Of a stretch of DNA of 32,496 nt, positions 11,386 through 18,270 are shown one piece after another. Made by a program: the position numbers and the translations under genes. Every line of letters starts with the position of its first letter. The stretch's first letter is position 1. The notes beneath the pieces were generated by a model. That model was not told the origin of the DNA. It was given only the letters and a program-made list of their open reading frames with translations, and did no database searches. This stretch comes from a virus (taxonomy: Duplodnaviria; Caudoviricetes): the IMG/VR virus record IMGVR_UViG_3300008255_000089, positions 1-32,496 of that record; one strand, given 5' to 3'.

Positions 11386-11479
11386 GCCCACGGACAACCC
11401 GCTTGGTGGCAAAGACCAGACAGGCAACGAGGGGCTTGGCGACGAGGAATTTAACACGGAGGGCACCAATGGCAGTTGA
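11369..11479 (+). CDS. 36-aa acidic micro-ORF (MAGESKPTDNPLGGKDQTGNEGLGDEEFNTEGTNGS)
   Basis: Strong RBS GGAGGT 4-5 nt upstream; fills the gap and overlaps the endolysin start; below the ORF-track cutoff. Confidence 0.55.
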   Translation: MAGESKPTDNPLGGKDQTGNEGLGDEEFNTEGTNGS

Positions 11480-12644
11480 GTTTTACGTGCCAGAGCTTAA
11501 GGCTGCGAGCGCATGGGTTGACCACCGGCAGGCAATCCCCGGCAACAGCTTTAGTTGGGCAGGCATGCAGGATATATCCCGCATAACGCAGCTGGTAATA
11601 CACCACACAGTTACGCCACGCACCACGCACCCGGACGACATTGCGCGCATGCACTTAAGCAGATGGGGCGCAAACGCAGGGGTTGGGTACCATTTTTTGA
11701 TTAGTGGCAGTGAGTTTTCCAACGGCTACGCCAAGGTTTTTTACGTTGGCGACCTTGCAACATACCGTGCCCACGTGGCAAACAAAAACATTGGCCGCAT
11801 TGGGATAAGCCTTATTGGCAACTTTGAGCAGGGGCACGCTGGGTACACCGGCCCACCTACGCCGGAGCAGTTGCGCAGTGCGCACGCTTTGGTGCGTGAG
11901 TTTGTGGCGCGCGAAAGCAAGCGCATGCCACTCCTTACCGGGTACGACAAGGTGGTTAAGCACAAAGATTTACAGGCCACCGCTTGCCCCGGCAACACGG
12001 TTGACCAGTGGTGGAATGCAATAATTAAAGGGGAGGTTAATGTGATTAAACTTAATAATGGCGACGTTTTCAAGGTTGGCAACGAGGCGGCGCATTGGCT
12101 TTTGGAGGGCGGCAAAAAGCGGGCGTTTAGTAGCGCGGAGGCATTTACCGAGCATCGTTACAAATGGGAGCAGGCCAAGGTTGTTGACCGGGCACAGGCA
12201 GACGGCATACCGGACGGCGCGCCGGTGTTTAGCCGTTATGAGCACGTACTTAACAAGGCTGGCCGTAAAACAATTGAGCAGCTGTTTGTTGATGGCGATG
12301 CGATTACGCCAACACAGCTTTTAACGAACACGCGCGAGCAGATTGATAAGTGGATTATTACGGAGCGCGACAGCGCTGCAAAGATTGCGGCAGCACAAAA
12401 ACAAACCAAAGCGGCAAACGATGCACTGGCAAAAAAGGTTGCAGAGGTTGCGACGTTGCAAAAAGAAAACAGCACGCTTGATACGCAGGTTGAGGTGCAG
12501 GCCAAGGCAATTGCCGACCGTGACGAACAAATAAAAACGTTGCAAGCAAAGGTGGCTGAGCTTGAGGCGCAGGAGCCCATTGTTGACACCGGCGAGTTTG
12601 AGCGTGTATTTTGGCGTATTTACTTTAAAAAAGGAGGGCTGTAA
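11469..12644 (+). CDS. Endolysin: N-acetylmuramoyl-L-alanine amidase (Amidase_2/PGRP-like) with middle domain and coiled-coil tail
   Basis: 'VIHHT', 'GVGYHFLI', 'AHV...N..IGISLIGNF', 'HKDLQATACPG' Zn-amidase motifs; start ATG 11469 after GGAGGG. Confidence 0.92.
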   Translation: MAVEFYVPELKAASAWVDHRQAIPGNSFSWAGMQDISRITQLVIHHTVTPRTTHPDDIARMHLSRWGANAGVGYHFLISGSEFSNGYAKVFYVGDLATYRAHVANKNIGRIGISLIGNFEQGHAGYTGPPTPEQLRSAHALVREFVARESKRMPLLTGYDKVVKHKDLQATACPGNTVDQWWNAIIKGEVNVIKLNNGDVFKVGNEAAHWLLEGGKKRAFSSAEAFTEHRYKWEQAKVVDRAQADGIPDGAPVFSRYEHVLNKAGRKTIEQLFVDGDAITPTQLLTNTREQIDKWIITERDSAAKIAAAQKQTKAANDALAKKVAEVATLQKENSTLDTQVEVQAKAIADRDEQIKTLQAKVAELEAQEPIVDTGEFERVFWRIYFKKGGL

Positions 12645-12922
12645 TGCGTATACCCGACGCGCTTAAAAAGGCTGTTTGGGAAACTGTAAAAACAGCAGGG
12701 CGCATTGCTATTAGTGGTGCCATTGGCGCACTGTTTGTTTGGGTACAGGGATTAGTTACTAGCAACACCGACCCCGGCATGGCTATTGTGTATGGCGGTA
12801 TTTTGTTTTTGCTGGATAAGTTGCAATACGCGTTTACCAAAGAGCAGTACAGGCAGGATGCCGCAAAGGCACCAGACCCAATTGTAATGGCACAAAAACC
12901 AAAAGGCATTATCCCTTTTTAG
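12644..12922 (+). CDS. Putative holin (2 TM)
   Basis: 92 aa, two hydrophobic segments, directly after the endolysin (AAGGAGG RBS, TAATG overlap). Confidence 0.65.
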   Translation: MRIPDALKKAVWETVKTAGRIAISGAIGALFVWVQGLVTSNTDPGMAIVYGGILFLLDKLQYAFTKEQYRQDAAKAPDPIVMAQKPKGIIPF

Positions 12923-12945
12923 CGGCAATAGTAAATTGGATAAAC

Positions 12946-12983
12946 ACAAAACCACCGGCGTTTTTATTCGCTGGTGGTTTTGT
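12946..12983. terminator. Probably bidirectional intrinsic terminator
   Basis: ACAAAACCACCGGCG-loop-CGCTGGTGGTTTTGT stem with T-rich runs on both strands; ends the late operon and could end the minus-strand RNA. Confidence 0.75.
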
Positions 12984-12989
12984 TGTGTG

Positions 12990-13182
12990 CCTGCCAAGGC
13001 CTGTTGCCGCTTTCAGGGCTTGGCCCTTTCCCCTTTCGGGTAGTGTCTTGGGGTGGGTTCCGGTAGGCGGGGCTACTTCGCTTTCGCGTCTGTTGCCGCT
13101 TTCAGGTTTTCCTAGGGGCCGCTTTCGCGGTGCCGCTTGTTTTGGTTCCCTCCCCGGTAGGCGGGGCTGCTTCCTTGGCAGG
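12990..13182 (-). ncRNA. Candidate structured ncRNA with two duplicated domains
   Basis: Perfect 10-bp closing stem; three GAAA-tetraloop hairpins on the minus strand; a 17-nt and a 20-nt motif are each present twice; own promoter and terminator. Confidence 0.7.
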
Positions 13183-13221
13183 TTGCTGGTTGTGTTGTTA
13201 ATGTTCCCCTTTTGTGATTCT

Positions 13222-13249
13222 ATCGTACACCAGACTGGTCAAAAGACAA
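13222..13249 (-). promoter_or_regulatory. Sigma70-like promoter for the minus-strand RNA
   Basis: TTGTCT-16 nt-TACGAT on the minus strand (a TAGAAT also overlaps); palindrome ACCAG-A-CTGGT (13229-13239) in the spacer. Confidence 0.55.
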
Positions 13250-13288
13250 GAGGATTTGCAAAAGGGTTACCCTACCCCACCCGGCGCA

Positions 13289-13297
13289 TGATAAAAT
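13289..13297 (+). promoter_or_regulatory. Extended -10 promoter for the sRNA
   Basis: TGaTAAAAT ending 6 nt before the seed hairpin. Confidence 0.6.
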
Positions 13298-13303
13298 TAC
13301 AAG

Positions 13304-13358
13304 TGGCTTTCTCCGAGCCAAGCAAGGCGGTGCCGCAAGGTGCCGCTTTTGCGTTATT
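13304..13358 (+). ncRNA. Candidate trans-acting antisense sRNA (anti-RBS)
   Basis: Hairpin TGGCT-TTCTCCG-AGCCA whose sequence is the reverse complement of the recurring RBS motif CTCGGAGAAAGC; followed by a GCAA-tetraloop terminator. Confidence 0.7.
13322..13358 (+). terminator. Intrinsic terminator of the sRNA
   Basis: AAGGCGGTGCC-GCAA-GGTGCCGCTTTT; the G-U pairs and GNRA loop work only on the + strand; followed by GCGTTATT. Confidence 0.7.
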
Positions 13359-13562
13359 GCGGGTTTGCTCCCCTGCGATAGCCTATACCAAAGGAGCAAC
13401 TAGCATACAAAAACATGGTAAAATTACCTGTTTTGCGTGTAGCGCCACCAGTGGCACGCTGGCGCATTTACCCCGCATAATGGCATTGGATATTTGCCGA
13501 GCGCTTTAAAAGCGTTGTCGTGGGCCATAAAACGAGTTTTTTCCGGCGGCCAAAAAAAAGTA

Positions 13563-13590
13563 TTGCACTTTGCCACTTGAGGTGTATCAT
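13563..13590 (+). promoter_or_regulatory. Early promoter P1 (rep operon)
   Basis: TTGCAC-16-TATCAT followed by GCAGCCAAC; A-tract upstream. Confidence 0.7.
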
Positions 13591-13644
13591 GCAGCCAACA
13601 AACCCTTTGCAAAACAGCTTAATAAATTTAACTCGGAGGCGGCC

Positions 13645-14397
13645 ATGGGTGACAGTAAAAACAAAAGCCCGGCATTTCAATTTTACCCAAAGGATTGGTT
13701 AAGTGATGTGCGCGTGCGCAGCATGACCCCGGCGCAACGTGGTTATTACATTGACCTTTTGGCATACATGTGGCTTGAGCCAGAGGCACAGCTGCCAAAT
13801 GATGACGAGTTGCTTGCCGGGTTGTTGCATTGCAGCGCGGATGATTTAAGGGTGGTTAAAGGGTGCTTGGCAATTGGTTCAAAGGTGGTTACCCAAAAAC
13901 GACTGCAAGCTGAGCGGGATAAACAACGCGAGTGGCGCGAAAAGTCAAAGCTTGGCGGCTTAAAATCAGCAGCAAAACGGCGCAAGGCCAGTGCTGGTAA
14001 CGATAAAGAGCAACCCAACGGTGGTGCAACCACCCTTGGTACCACCCTTGCAACCAAAGGGCAACCAAAGGGCAACATTGCTTCTTCGTTTTCTTTTTCA
14101 AAGAAAGCTAATAGAGGTGTGGATAATGTGGATAACTTTGCAAGTGGTAAAGCTGCTTTTAAAAAATTACCAGATTGGCCCCAACCAGACCAAAAGGTTT
14201 TAAGCCAGTTGGCCAAGTATTGCATGGAACAAGATCCCACTTACTACGAGGGGCAAACAGGTGCCATGCGGCAGGTGCTTAAGTGGGCCAACCAATACGG
14301 CATGCCAAAAATAAACGCGGCCATACAGGCAAACAACATACACGGCAGCCCCGGCCTATTTACGTTTAAACAATTATTGGAGGATGGCAATGTTTAA
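13645..14397 (+). CDS. Replication initiator, DUF1376/YdaU-like N-terminus
   Basis: 'SPAFQFYPKDWLSD...MTPAQRGYYIDLLAYMW....LPNDD..LA' is typical of DUF1376; internal iteron-like repeats; start ATG 13645 after CTCGGAGG. Confidence 0.85.
   Translation: MGDSKNKSPAFQFYPKDWLSDVRVRSMTPAQRGYYIDLLAYMWLEPEAQLPNDDELLAGLLHCSADDLRVVKGCLAIGSKVVTQKRLQAERDKQREWREKSKLGGLKSAAKRRKASAGNDKEQPNGGATTLGTTLATKGQPKGNIASSFSFSKKANRGVDNVDNFASGKAAFKKLPDWPQPDQKVLSQLAKYCMEQDPTYYEGQTGAMRQVLKWANQYGMPKINAAIQANNIHGSPGLFTFKQLLEDGNV
13848..14135. other. Putative replication origin inside the rep gene
   Basis: AAGGGTGGTT-type repeats (13848, 13859, 13881) with inverted copies (14028, 14040), 11-bp tandem GCAACCAAAGG, a T-rich tract, and two perfect DnaA boxes TGTGGATAA (14118-14135). 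Confidence 0.75.
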
Positions 14398-14998
14398 GGT
14401 GCTTGCTGTTTGCGTTGGTTTAGTGGCCGCGCTTGGTGCTGGTTACGCACAGCCAAGCCCACAGCTGCCATACAGCCACGGCACAACTGTTGTTGATGGT
14501 GGGCACGCCGGCATGAAGGATGCGCCAATTAGCGCTCCGGTAAGCGCACCGGTTACCCCTACCCTGCCGACGGAGCCAGAGCCAACACCGGAGCCAGAGC
14601 CAATTGTTGAGCCGGTTGTTGAGCTATGCGGCCCGGATATTATTATTTTTTGCGACGACATGTTGCCGCTTAACAACGGTGATGGTTGGGTGCCAACGCC
14701 AAGCACTTACACGGTAACGCTTGAGGGTGAGGCTAGTTGGTATGAAATGGGCCACACCACCAGTTGCGGTTACCCATACAACCCGGACGATATTACGGTT
14801 GCGCTGGCAATTAAGCACATGGACAAGGCCAAGTTATGTGGGGCACCAATAGTAGTTACCTATAACGGCAAAACAATAACGGCAGCCATAACCGATACCA
14901 TGCCGGACAACGGCACCGGGCGCATTGTCGATTTGTCGCGAGGCACGCGCAAAGCGCTTGGCATGGGCGATTTGGGGCATGTTGTGTTGCACTATTAA
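14390..14998 (+). CDS. Exported RlpA-like (DPBB) protein
   Basis: Signal peptide, Pro/Glu-rich linker, 'GEASWY...T.CG......VAL...CG..IVVTYNGKTITA.ITD....GRIVDLSRG...ALG' double-psi beta-barrel. Confidence 0.85.
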   Translation: MFKVLAVCVGLVAALGAGYAQPSPQLPYSHGTTVVDGGHAGMKDAPISAPVSAPVTPTLPTEPEPTPEPEPIVEPVVELCGPDIIIFCDDMLPLNNGDGWVPTPSTYTVTLEGEASWYEMGHTTSCGYPYNPDDITVALAIKHMDKAKLCGAPIVVTYNGKTITAAITDTMPDNGTGRIVDLSRGTRKALGMGDLGHVVLHY

Positions 14999-15014
14999 GT
15001 GTAAAAGAAAACCC

Positions 15015-15042
15015 TTTACAAAACCCTTTGTTTTGGTATCAT
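15015..15042 (+). promoter_or_regulatory. Early promoter P2
   Basis: TTTACA-16-TATCAT with extended -10 TG. Confidence 0.75.
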
Positions 15043-15179: not shown

Positions 15180-15392
15180 ATGCAGCGCCAACAGATTCAA
15201 TTGCAGGATTTACCAAAGTACAACAAGGAAAACCGCGACGTTTACGCAATGCGCAGGCAGGAAATTTTCCGCATGTACACTGAGGATGGCCTTACCCTTG
15301 TTGACATTGCCGGGCAGACCGGGTTAACCGCAGTGCGGGTTGGCCAGATTGTGCAGCAGGTTGAGCAGGAAATTGCCACAGCAGGCATTTAA
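15180..15392 (+). CDS. Small helix-turn-helix protein (sigma region-4-like)
   Basis: 'RRQEIFRMY..DGLTLVDIAGQTGLTAVRVGQIV' HTH; AAGGAGG RBS. Confidence 0.8.
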   Translation: MQRQQIQLQDLPKYNKENRDVYAMRRQEIFRMYTEDGLTLVDIAGQTGLTAVRVGQIVQQVEQEIATAGI

Positions 15393-16131: not shown

Positions 16132-16157
16132 TAAAAATAACCGGCACACAACAAGCC

Positions 16158-16254
16158 ACCCCTCCCCTACCCTAGCGGCCAGAGCGCCATATAAGCCATA
16201 TATATAATATAAATATAGGCTTTTGGCACACCTCGTGCGGGGTAGGGGAGGGGT
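16158..16254. repeat. 15-bp perfect inverted repeat around an AT-only core
   Basis: ACCCCTCCCCTACCC/GGGTAGGGGAGGGGT, inner stems, a 20-nt A/T-only centre, and a T-tract after the right arm. Confidence 0.85.
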
Positions 16255-16267
16255 TTTGTTTTTCCTC

Positions 16268-16296
16268 TTTACAAAAGGGTTTTGTGATACTATCAT
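16268..16296 (+). promoter_or_regulatory. Early promoter P3
   Basis: TTTACA-17-TATCAT followed by GCAGCCAAC (15-mer identical to P1). Confidence 0.75.
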
Positions 16297-17884: not shown

Positions 17885-18270
17885 CTTGGGAGCAGATGCG
17901 CGAAATGCGCAAAAAGCACACGATGCGTGGCGTTACTGATTGGAAAGCAATGTCTAATGAGATTGAGCAGCTTAAGGGCCCAACTGGCCACATGGTGCCG
18001 GTACCGGGAAAGCCGGAGAAAACAAAGCCTGCCGGGAATCCCGGTAAAAATGCCGAGGCGGTTAGTATGCCGGACAATGTGCGCAAAATGGATTTGCCAG
18101 AAGTGCAACGGCGGCTTGCCACACTTGAGGGCACGCTGCCAAAACTTGAGGCAACGCCGGGGTGGAAAGAAAAAAACGCAGCGCAGCACGTTGAGCTTTT
18201 GGCCGGGTATTGGTTTTTGATGGAGCGGTTTTACCAAATTACAGGCGCAAGTTGGCAGGGGTTACCATGA
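17872..18270 (+). CDS. Hypothetical protein
   Basis: AAGGGGG RBS; packed operon context. Confidence 0.7.
   Translation: MAGVTWEQMREMRKKHTMRGVTDWKAMSNEIEQLKGPTGHMVPVPGKPEKTKPAGNPGKNAEAVSMPDNVRKMDLPEVQRRLATLEGTLPKLEATPGWKEKNAAQHVELLAGYWFLMERFYQITGASWQGLP

Follow-up and report, generated by a model that had tools for sequence, protein, structure and literature searches.

A duplicated non-coding element in a tailed phage: a probable RNA gene whose product is predicted to fold as a cross-paired symmetric rod

The locus and its predicted transcription signals

The window analyzed here is a complete virus record of 32,496 nucleotides (positions 1–32,496) with direct terminal repeats, corresponding to a tailed phage of 32.5 kb. 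Searches of PHROGs (44 query ORFs, 43 of them on the plus strand) and Pfam identified tail, tape-measure, endolysin, terminase, portal, protease and capsid proteins, the terminase large subunit, the portal and the HK97-type capsid protein being of ordinary types; many small ORFs have no known family in these two collections. No tRNA or tmRNA gene was found in the window by ARAGORN, and no integrase, reverse transcriptase or RNA-guided nuclease was matched among the ORFs scanned with PHROGs, Pfam and PADLOC. No close relative of the phage was found in IMG/VR and the other collections searched: the nearest endolysin relative reaches 37% over 85% of the length, others reach 42–44% over the catalytic domain only, and the capsid relatives (55–58%) lie on short contigs. 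Searches for the host gave no identification.

The element under study sits in a gap of 647 nt, between the end of a holin-like ORF at 12922 and the start of a replication-initiator-like gene at 13570. The flanking genes and transcription signals are as follows.

11403–12644, plus strand: amidase endolysin, left flank (PHROG amidase, E 4e-16; Pfam Amidase_2)
12644–12922, plus strand: 92-residue hydrophobic ORF, left flank, holin-like by position and sequence, with no family match
12946–12983, either strand: predicted intrinsic terminator that would act in both directions, also for the convergent lysis genes; 15-nt arms 93% complementary, pair probability 0.99
13183–13215, minus strand: A/C-rich 5′ leader (18 A, 8 C, 5 G, 2 U), predicted unstructured, pair probabilities ≤0.33
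13222–13249, minus strand: predicted promoter, with a −35 box at 13249–13244, a 16-nt spacer and a −10 box at 13227–13222; putative, 8/12 consensus positions
13250–13278, minus strand: upstream promoter element in common with a plus-strand promoter at 16239–16296, 20/29 identity
13570–14397, plus strand: replication-initiator-like gene, right flank, divergent from the RNA (phrog_9327 primosomal protein, E 1.5e-11; DUF1376)

The original prediction had assigned a promoter and a terminator to the element. Neither appears in the automated output: with a threshold of 9/12, the sigma-70 consensus scan lists no minus-strand promoter upstream of the RNA, where the candidate scores 8/12, and the hairpin at 12946–12983 is absent from the output of the terminator scan. 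The promoter is nevertheless backed by a comparison within the phage, and a terminator-like hairpin does exist. The 29 nt preceding the −35 box of the RNA match the 29 nt preceding that of the plus-strand promoter at 16268 (10/12) at 20 positions in exact register. This is the best non-self match in the genome; as at least 20 identities were found somewhere in 15 of 200 shuffles, the weight of the match lies in its exact position, and the register test was chosen after the match had been seen. The 12946–12983 hairpin has U-rich runs on both sides and is predicted to end both the RNA and the convergent lysis transcript. With a start site placed near 13215, the product is likely a stand-alone minus-strand RNA of about 270 nt, extending from 13215 to about 12945. 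These signals make it quite probable that the element is transcribed.

Several other features were noted around the promoter and the adjacent early genes. A 14-nt direct repeat (93%) at 13287–13300 and 13414–13427 holds plus-strand extended −10-like sites, divergent from the RNA promoter, and further hairpins lie upstream of the RNA at 13258–13352 and 13365–13399. A motif of 8–10 nt recurs in both orientations at or near four promoter-like sites (13256–13270, 13590–13610, 15005–15030 and 16268–16282) and is a candidate operator for the helix-turn-helix protein encoded at 15180–15392. The early gene at 14384–14998 is predicted to encode a secreted protein, rich in Pro and Glu, that carries a DPBB lytic-transglycosylase-like domain. 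A G/C inverted repeat around an AT-rich core, at about 16155–16250 and just before the promoter at 16268, is a candidate replication origin.

The element consists of two copies of a 90-nt unit, each carrying two conserved blocks.

13154–13173, minus strand: conserved block 1 of unit 1, with a CCGC (13164–13161) whose predicted partner is block 2 of unit 2 (probability 0.85)
13060–13079, minus strand: conserved block 1 of unit 2, repeat of the unit-1 block
13090–13106, minus strand: conserved block 2 of unit 1, with a GGC whose predicted partner is block 1 of unit 2 (probability 0.87)
13001–13017, minus strand: conserved block 2 of unit 2, 17/17 identical to 13090–13106

The duplication described in the original prediction was reproduced in full. 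The block-1 copies agree at 19 of 20 positions (95%) with a spacing of 94 nt, the block-2 copies at 17 of 17 (100%) with a spacing of 89 nt, and the arms that close the element (12990–12999 and 13173–13182) are complementary at 10 of 10 positions. A 19-nt block-1 pattern matches the window twice at up to three mismatches, and two matches were obtained in none of 100 shuffles. The repeat was not reported by TRF at score 30, and the two-unit element is present as a single copy in the genome. Between the conserved blocks, the linkers and stems diverge with their pairing kept, as seen from the unit alignment and the fold.

A plus-strand ORF of 174 codons runs across the element, with a coding score of −0.25 bits per codon as compared to +0.25 to +0.55 for 30 phage ORFs. 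All six frames over the transcript score −0.05 or less, and the transcript holds no AUG. As its codon usage is unlike that of the phage genes and AUG is lacking, the element is a non-coding duplication. Together with the absence of Rfam matches presented below, the coding scores bear out the earlier description of a minus-strand, structured, non-coding element without known family.

The phage shows an extreme avoidance of the dinucleotide TC, which on the plus strand reaches 0.16 of its expected frequency genome-wide, with observed/expected ratios of 0.12–0.22 in all codon positions; serine is encoded by 50 TCN against 392 AGY codons, and phenylalanine by 10 TTC against 262 TTT. GA is avoided where codons permit (0.26 and 0.31, against 1.01 at Asp/Glu positions). 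Since GA is likewise depleted, the avoidance acts on both DNA strands. A TC excess on the plus strand had been considered as a strand-specific bias that flips over the RNA, and was dropped as evidence of transcription because GA is avoided as well. The avoidance could stem from restriction or modification that targets GA sites, or from deamination directed at TC. Among 80 endolysin-related loci, three have an observed/expected ratio below 0.7 and none comes near the level of this phage.

The element stands out from this background. It had been credited with about 18 TC; the count is 15 in 12990–13215 (14 in 12990–13182), but it remains the TC-densest region of the genome, with up to 17 TC per 226 nt against a genome mean of 1.75. 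In terms of the RNA, 193 nt keep 14 GA where 2.9–5.6 would be expected under avoidance (Poisson p = 2e-6 to 2e-3), and seven of the 14 fall in conserved blocks or GAAA loops. UC is absent, with 3.4 expected (p = 0.03). We infer that the element was shaped by the genome bias where it was free to change, and resists it where the RNA needs GA. The retention of GA and the absence of UC fit a long-resident element under selection.

Predicted fold of the two-unit RNA

The minus strand of 12990–13182 folds with a predicted energy of −73.6 kcal/mol (z −3.18), which none of 200 shuffles equaled. The raw energy ranks third among 162 genome windows that include this one and are not GC-matched, so the folding is strong without being unique. 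On the plus strand the same span gives a z of −2.58, and with DNA parameters −2.06. As the fold energy differs little between strands, the strand is better indicated by three GAAA tetraloops and by the flanking signals. The predicted elements, in the order of the transcript for each pair, are listed below; the hairpins named in the original prediction are all recovered, with pair probabilities of 0.68–0.98.

13173–13182, minus strand: 5′ arm of the outer closing stem, pairing with 12999–12990, 10/10 complementary, probability 0.99
12990–12999, minus strand: 3′ arm of the outer closing stem, from complementarity and fold
13144–13155, minus strand: unit-1 strand of the central inter-unit helix (GG-N8-CC), pairing with 13061–13050, probabilities 0.99/0.99/0.82
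13050–13061, minus strand: unit-2 strand of the central inter-unit helix (GG-N8-CC), at the same place in its unit as the unit-1 strand (alignment)
13119–13130, minus strand: GAAA-tetraloop hairpin H1 of unit 1, 4 bp, probability 0.96
13031–13040, minus strand: GAAA-tetraloop hairpin H1 of unit 2, 3 bp, probability 0.68 (alternative register 0.31)
13104–13113, minus strand: variable hairpin H2 of unit 1, 3 bp and a U.G pair, probability 0.92
13015–13027, minus strand: variable hairpin H2 of unit 2, 5 bp, probability 0.98
13079–13088, minus strand: GAAA-tetraloop hairpin H3, joining the units and symmetry partner of the outer stem, probability 0.97

The central helix spans 12 positions, with nine Watson–Crick pairs and three A.A mismatches (pair probabilities 0.82–0.99). 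Its N8 segments occupy equivalent places in the two units, according to the unit alignment, and are complementary to each other; the chance of at least five Watson–Crick pairs out of eight in a fixed register is 0.02. Once the two N8 segments are paired, each block 1 has to pair with the block 2 of the opposite unit. The CCGC/GCGG pairing between blocks 1 and 2 that had been proposed earlier is thus predicted, but across the units and not inside one unit, and two independent domains are not supported since in the predicted fold the two units are joined by pairing. The swapped topology with the central helix is predicted at −68.4 kcal/mol, the swapped topology without it at −55.5 and the within-unit topology at −50.5, which places the swapped rod about 18 kcal/mol below two independent domains. 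When the units were cofolded as separate strands, the same cross-pairing was obtained, with a gain of 8.7 kcal/mol for unit 1 with unit 2 compared to 5.6 and 5.2 for the homo-pairs.

The repeated domain of this model would thus be a circular permutation of the unit first described, which starts with the central helix and runs through the A/C linker, the GAAA hairpin, the variable hairpin and block 2 to a capping stem (H3 or outer stem) and block 1. The two ends of the rod are predicted to be capped by the outer stem and by H3. On the basis of two copies in one genome and of a thermodynamic prediction that ignores pseudoknots, it is probable that the RNA folds as a strand-swapped rod with pseudo-two-fold symmetry. 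Such a rod is predicted to present two near-identical sites, each composed of a junction and an internal loop, arranged on the pseudo-two-fold axis.

The symmetry is imperfect, as an extra GCGG of unit 1 (13136–13133) competes for block 1 of unit 2, which in the free ensemble prefers it (probability 0.57) to its symmetric partner (0.13). In an alternative local fold, a pseudoknot, block 1 would form a weak 4-bp hairpin (−0.8 and −1.9 kcal/mol alone) with a loop that pairs to GCGG. This 4-bp stem 1 would contain a C.A mismatch in unit 1.

The folding of the corresponding DNA (z −2.06) and the near absence of G.U pairs from the stems would also suit an element that works as DNA, such as a single-strand origin in folded form, a signal for primase or an array of operators next to the replication gene. 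The element does adjoin the DUF1376/primosomal gene, and a 10-nt interrupted palindrome at 13127–13136 recurs at 13327–13336. However, promoter-like and terminator-like signals facing the minus strand bracket the element, the GNRA loops are found on one strand only, and a separate origin-like region lies at about 16155–16250. A role at the DNA level is considered quite unlikely.

Comparison with known RNAs and possible function

The Rfam search suggested in the original prediction was run and returned no known family. None of the 4227 families of Rfam 15 reached its gathering score in the window, and with E up to 10 the region 12850–13600 gave 12 weak matches, none of which came close to gathering and most of which fell on the terminator hairpin. 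The Rfam result and inspection by eye led us to discard likenesses to SAM-I, c-di-GMP-I, twister, HDV-like, glnA, nadA and pieces of group II introns. A literature search with motif strings found no RNA-family paper by title, and the element was not found in the supplement of PMC10085705 or in the searched files of PMC10690425. From sequence comparison, the RNA would be an undescribed orphan RNA of unusual architecture, a point on which the catalogue of PMC10690425 may bear.

The presence of two equivalent sites invites comparison with the c-di-AMP (ydaO) riboswitch aptamer, which has a pseudo-two-fold architecture with two equivalent sites. The phage RNA could likewise be a two-pocket sponge for a small signaling nucleotide (a cyclic dinucleotide or similar), resembling a pseudo-symmetric aptamer without expression platform. 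The pseudo-two-fold fold, the invariant unpaired purines and the three GAAA tetraloops agree with such a role, for which the two-fold symmetric ydaO aptamer provides the analogy. On the other hand, no riboswitch family was matched at its gathering score, nor when E values up to 10 were allowed. The RNA differs from ydaO by having neither an Rfam match nor a downstream gene or expression platform, and by a symmetry that originates from a visible sequence duplication. No same-strand gene follows it, as would be the case for a cis-acting riboswitch, and its terminator faces the lysis genes of the opposite strand. We know of no natural RNA sponge for defense nucleotides, and this reading is held to be improbable.

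The original prediction had also offered a tandem aptamer or sponge, a ribozyme or a scaffold; of these, the ribozyme fails for the cores tested, hammerhead and hairpin. A new or degenerate ribozyme, with two halves folded onto each other in the manner of a double hammerhead, would be compatible with the cross-unit central helix and with the GAAA before and the CUA after the block 1/block 2 helix in each unit, an arrangement that we take to resemble half of the hammerhead core. Rearranged hammerheads exist (PMC10085705). Against this, both strands lack the remaining half of the hammerhead core as well as the loop B motif of the hairpin ribozyme, and no ribozyme family of Rfam was matched; a ribozyme is rated as highly unlikely.

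Mimicry of SRP RNA helix 8 or of the RNase P specificity domain, by which the RNA would titrate Ffh or bind tRNA, was suggested by short similarities. Positions 13176–13166 are identical over 11 of 11 nt to an SRP RNA (locus L299; p = 0.025 against shuffles), this being one of three SRP RNAs compared, of which the other two gave nothing significant, and block 2 shares 13 matching positions, after two hairpins, with an RNase P RNA (locus L294). But the SRP family (RF00169) gave no match at E up to 10, and the full helix-8 pattern, in which a symmetric loop precedes a 3-bp stem and a GNRA loop, is absent. The bacterial A and archaeal RNase P families (RF00010 and RF00373) likewise gave no match, and the second T-loop strand is missing. 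Alignments to four RNase P RNAs were not significant in three cases (p = 0.32–0.63), and the fourth (p = 0.003) involves a part of the RNase P RNA close to its 3′ end and not its S-domain. Such mimicry has a very slim chance of being correct.

The stand-alone character, stem-closed ends, GNRA loops and undefined function recall the orphan ornate RNAs GOLLD, ROOL, OLE and raiA (PMC12286853, PMC12968392 and PMC10861870). GOLLD, ROOL and OLE form homo-oligomers via RNA–RNA contacts. The phage RNA is much smaller, its dimer is covalent and encoded in tandem, and it matches none of their models. For raiA, PMC12968392 describes a P1 with GU and GGU bulges, a bent P3 and two pseudoknot stems; the predicted fold shows none of these features, and RF03072 gave no match at E up to 10. 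The element would best be placed among stand-alone structured phage RNAs, with an unusual cross-paired predicted fold and no known family.

Another comparison is with pseudo-ToxI of phage PhiTE, a phage-encoded repeated non-coding RNA and a precedent for repeated RNA decoys (PMC3475682), and with the type III antitoxin arrays toxI, cptI and tenpI, of which the tenpI loci carry two non-identical repeats between promoter and terminator (PMC12283969). The two-unit RNA resembles type III antitoxins in that a run rich in A directly precedes what may be a second pseudoknot stem. It differs from them by repeats of 89–94 nt with inserted hairpins, about twice the antitoxin length. Unlike type III antitoxins, which are cut into free pseudoknots, the units lie within the closing stem and their mutual pairing is predicted. 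Downstream of the terminator no toxin gene was found, the next gene being the opposite-strand holin-like ORF, and no toxin family was detected among the ORFs scanned with PHROGs, Pfam and PADLOC. As no toxin follows, the RNA does not belong to a type III operon; it may work like a pseudo-antitoxin.

We tentatively propose, with less than even confidence, that this stand-alone RNA of about 270 nt and its strand-swapped rod constitute a trans-acting decoy with two sites for a dimeric host protein, plausibly a defense factor. Block 1 of each unit would pair with block 2 of the other unit, the 12-position central helix would join the units, and the outer stem and H3 would cap the ends. The two equal sites held at fixed spacing would be recognized through their shape by a two-fold host protein, and the RNA would titrate this protein, plausibly acting in defense, in trans. 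Action in trans is suggested because the RNA overlaps no gene, precedes no gene on its strand and ends in a terminator; a role in cis is unlikely. A protein ligand is suggested by the two equal sites at fixed spacing, the variable stems and the invariant unpaired purines. A decoy for a host protein appears the likeliest use as the phage is small and no integrase, reverse transcriptase or guided nuclease was matched among its scanned ORFs. With a core of less than 200 nt, the RNA is cheap to synthesize and probe, which makes the fold and the question of the ligand directly testable.

The same features of the fold would also accommodate a structural RNA that serves a phage protein, as a scaffold for packaging, replication or regulation, the two units providing two binding sites. 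The pRNA of phi29 reportedly oligomerizes by inter-unit pairing, and the many small phage ORFs without known family leave room for such a protein. However, the terminase large subunit, portal and HK97-type capsid protein are ordinary, and such packaging motors are not known to use RNA; nor was a reverse transcriptase or RNA-guided nuclease matched among the scanned ORFs. A scaffold for a phage protein is very unlikely.

Search for relatives

The two-block unit was searched in several collections. Five DNA-pattern scans of IMG/VR returned 119 (60 of 64 parts covered), 14, 31, 68 and 20 loci, none of which holds the two-block unit upon inspection of the context. A metagenome pattern scan found one locus, which belongs to the same phage with one mismatch in 7,104 nt. 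Two pattern scans of GTDB gave no locus and 31 chance loci, respectively. One GTDB locus (L288) looked alike and was rejected for lying inside a membrane-protein ORF of 296 codons; two further loci (L304 and L316) were rejected as coding or likely coding. With blastn, one short match was found among phages and two among plasmids.

Three covariance models, R1 to R3, were used; they were built from one to three sequences each and have little reach. R1 scored at most 25 bits outside the window in 100 + 31 sources and five genomes, mostly at loci that had been picked for the shared motif. R2 gave one weak match among 50 virus records (17.7 bits), judged spurious. R3, applied to 51 records, found its three seed records and a weak match at 18145–18262 of a further genome (locus L401, G019; 18.9 bits, E 0.01).

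Three of the 14 loci that contain the 16-mer of block 1 share a near-identical, structured, non-coding element of 130 nt.

L123, 95–225: 130-nt element
L133, 73–203: 130-nt element
L125, 1410–1539: 130-nt element

This element is flanked by different genes in the three phage contigs, shows one compensatory change, and has a self-complementary segment repeated at both ends. It gave no Rfam match (L125), and no further member was found by pattern scan of IMG/VR. Besides the exact 16-mer, the order of its parts resembles that of the inner domain of the two-unit RNA, with a closing helix followed by an A-rich linker, a GNRA hairpin, two more hairpins and block 1. In L125, a 9/12 match to block 2 is followed by AACAG, a combination as good being found in 11 of 20,010 control windows; the block-2 match is only 7/12 ungapped in L123 and L133. 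The element differs from the two-unit RNA by its single unit, by the 7-bp hairpin that block 1 forms, and by residing in AT-rich phages without TC avoidance. R2, a model of the two-unit RNA, scores 11–13 bits on the three copies (E 0.2–0.7), and reciprocally R3, the model of the 130-nt element, does not find the two-unit RNA at E up to 10. From these sequence comparisons, homology between the two is doubtful.

The lack of a clear homologue in any collection scanned would be expected of a relic or a selfish duplicated element that brings no benefit to the phage, its blocks being alike through recent duplication or homogenization. The 130-nt element with the shared 16-mer, found among different genes in three phages like a mobile element, points in the same direction. 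In contrast, the divergence between the two units is patterned, with linkers that differ, pairing that is kept and N8 segments that are complementary to each other. In addition, GA is kept against strong avoidance, UC is absent, and the genome holds a single copy. The chance that the element is such a relic is small.

The decoy proposal can be extended to the origin of the RNA. The self-complementary ends of the 130-nt element are what a self-dimerizing ancestor might look like, which is not evidence for one, and this element may be a living relative of such an ancestor. The two-unit RNA would then be a covalent strand-swapped dimer arisen by tandem fusion of the ancestor, and would represent a new class of counter-defense phage RNA that neutralizes a dimeric defense protein or soaks up a defense nucleotide; we regard this extended scheme as unlikely. 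If the two halves of this compact RNA evolved to lock together, they would illustrate a new way to build a bivalent RNA and would show a homodimer on its way to becoming a fused heterodimer. Phage RNAs known to counter host defense are few, examples being pseudo-ToxI (PMC3475682) and the RNA anti-CRISPRs; both are simple repeats of a host RNA.

Other candidate RNAs were met in the scans. At about 60–765 of one locus (L364, the same as L368), a promoter and a tRNA-like segment precede a GC-rich non-coding stretch of about 480 nt, which a terminator closes. It folds at −187.6 kcal/mol, a value without shuffle control, has no Rfam match at E 0.05 and no ARAGORN match, and is a candidate large phage RNA. 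A segment of another locus (L126, about 1365–1450) resembles by eye the joined tRNA-like ends of tmRNA, and is absent from the results of ARAGORN and of Rfam at E 0.05. In a Chloroflexia genome, the minus strand of 1501–1878 (L297) carries an atypical RNase P RNA, which scores 89.6 bits, below the family cut-off.
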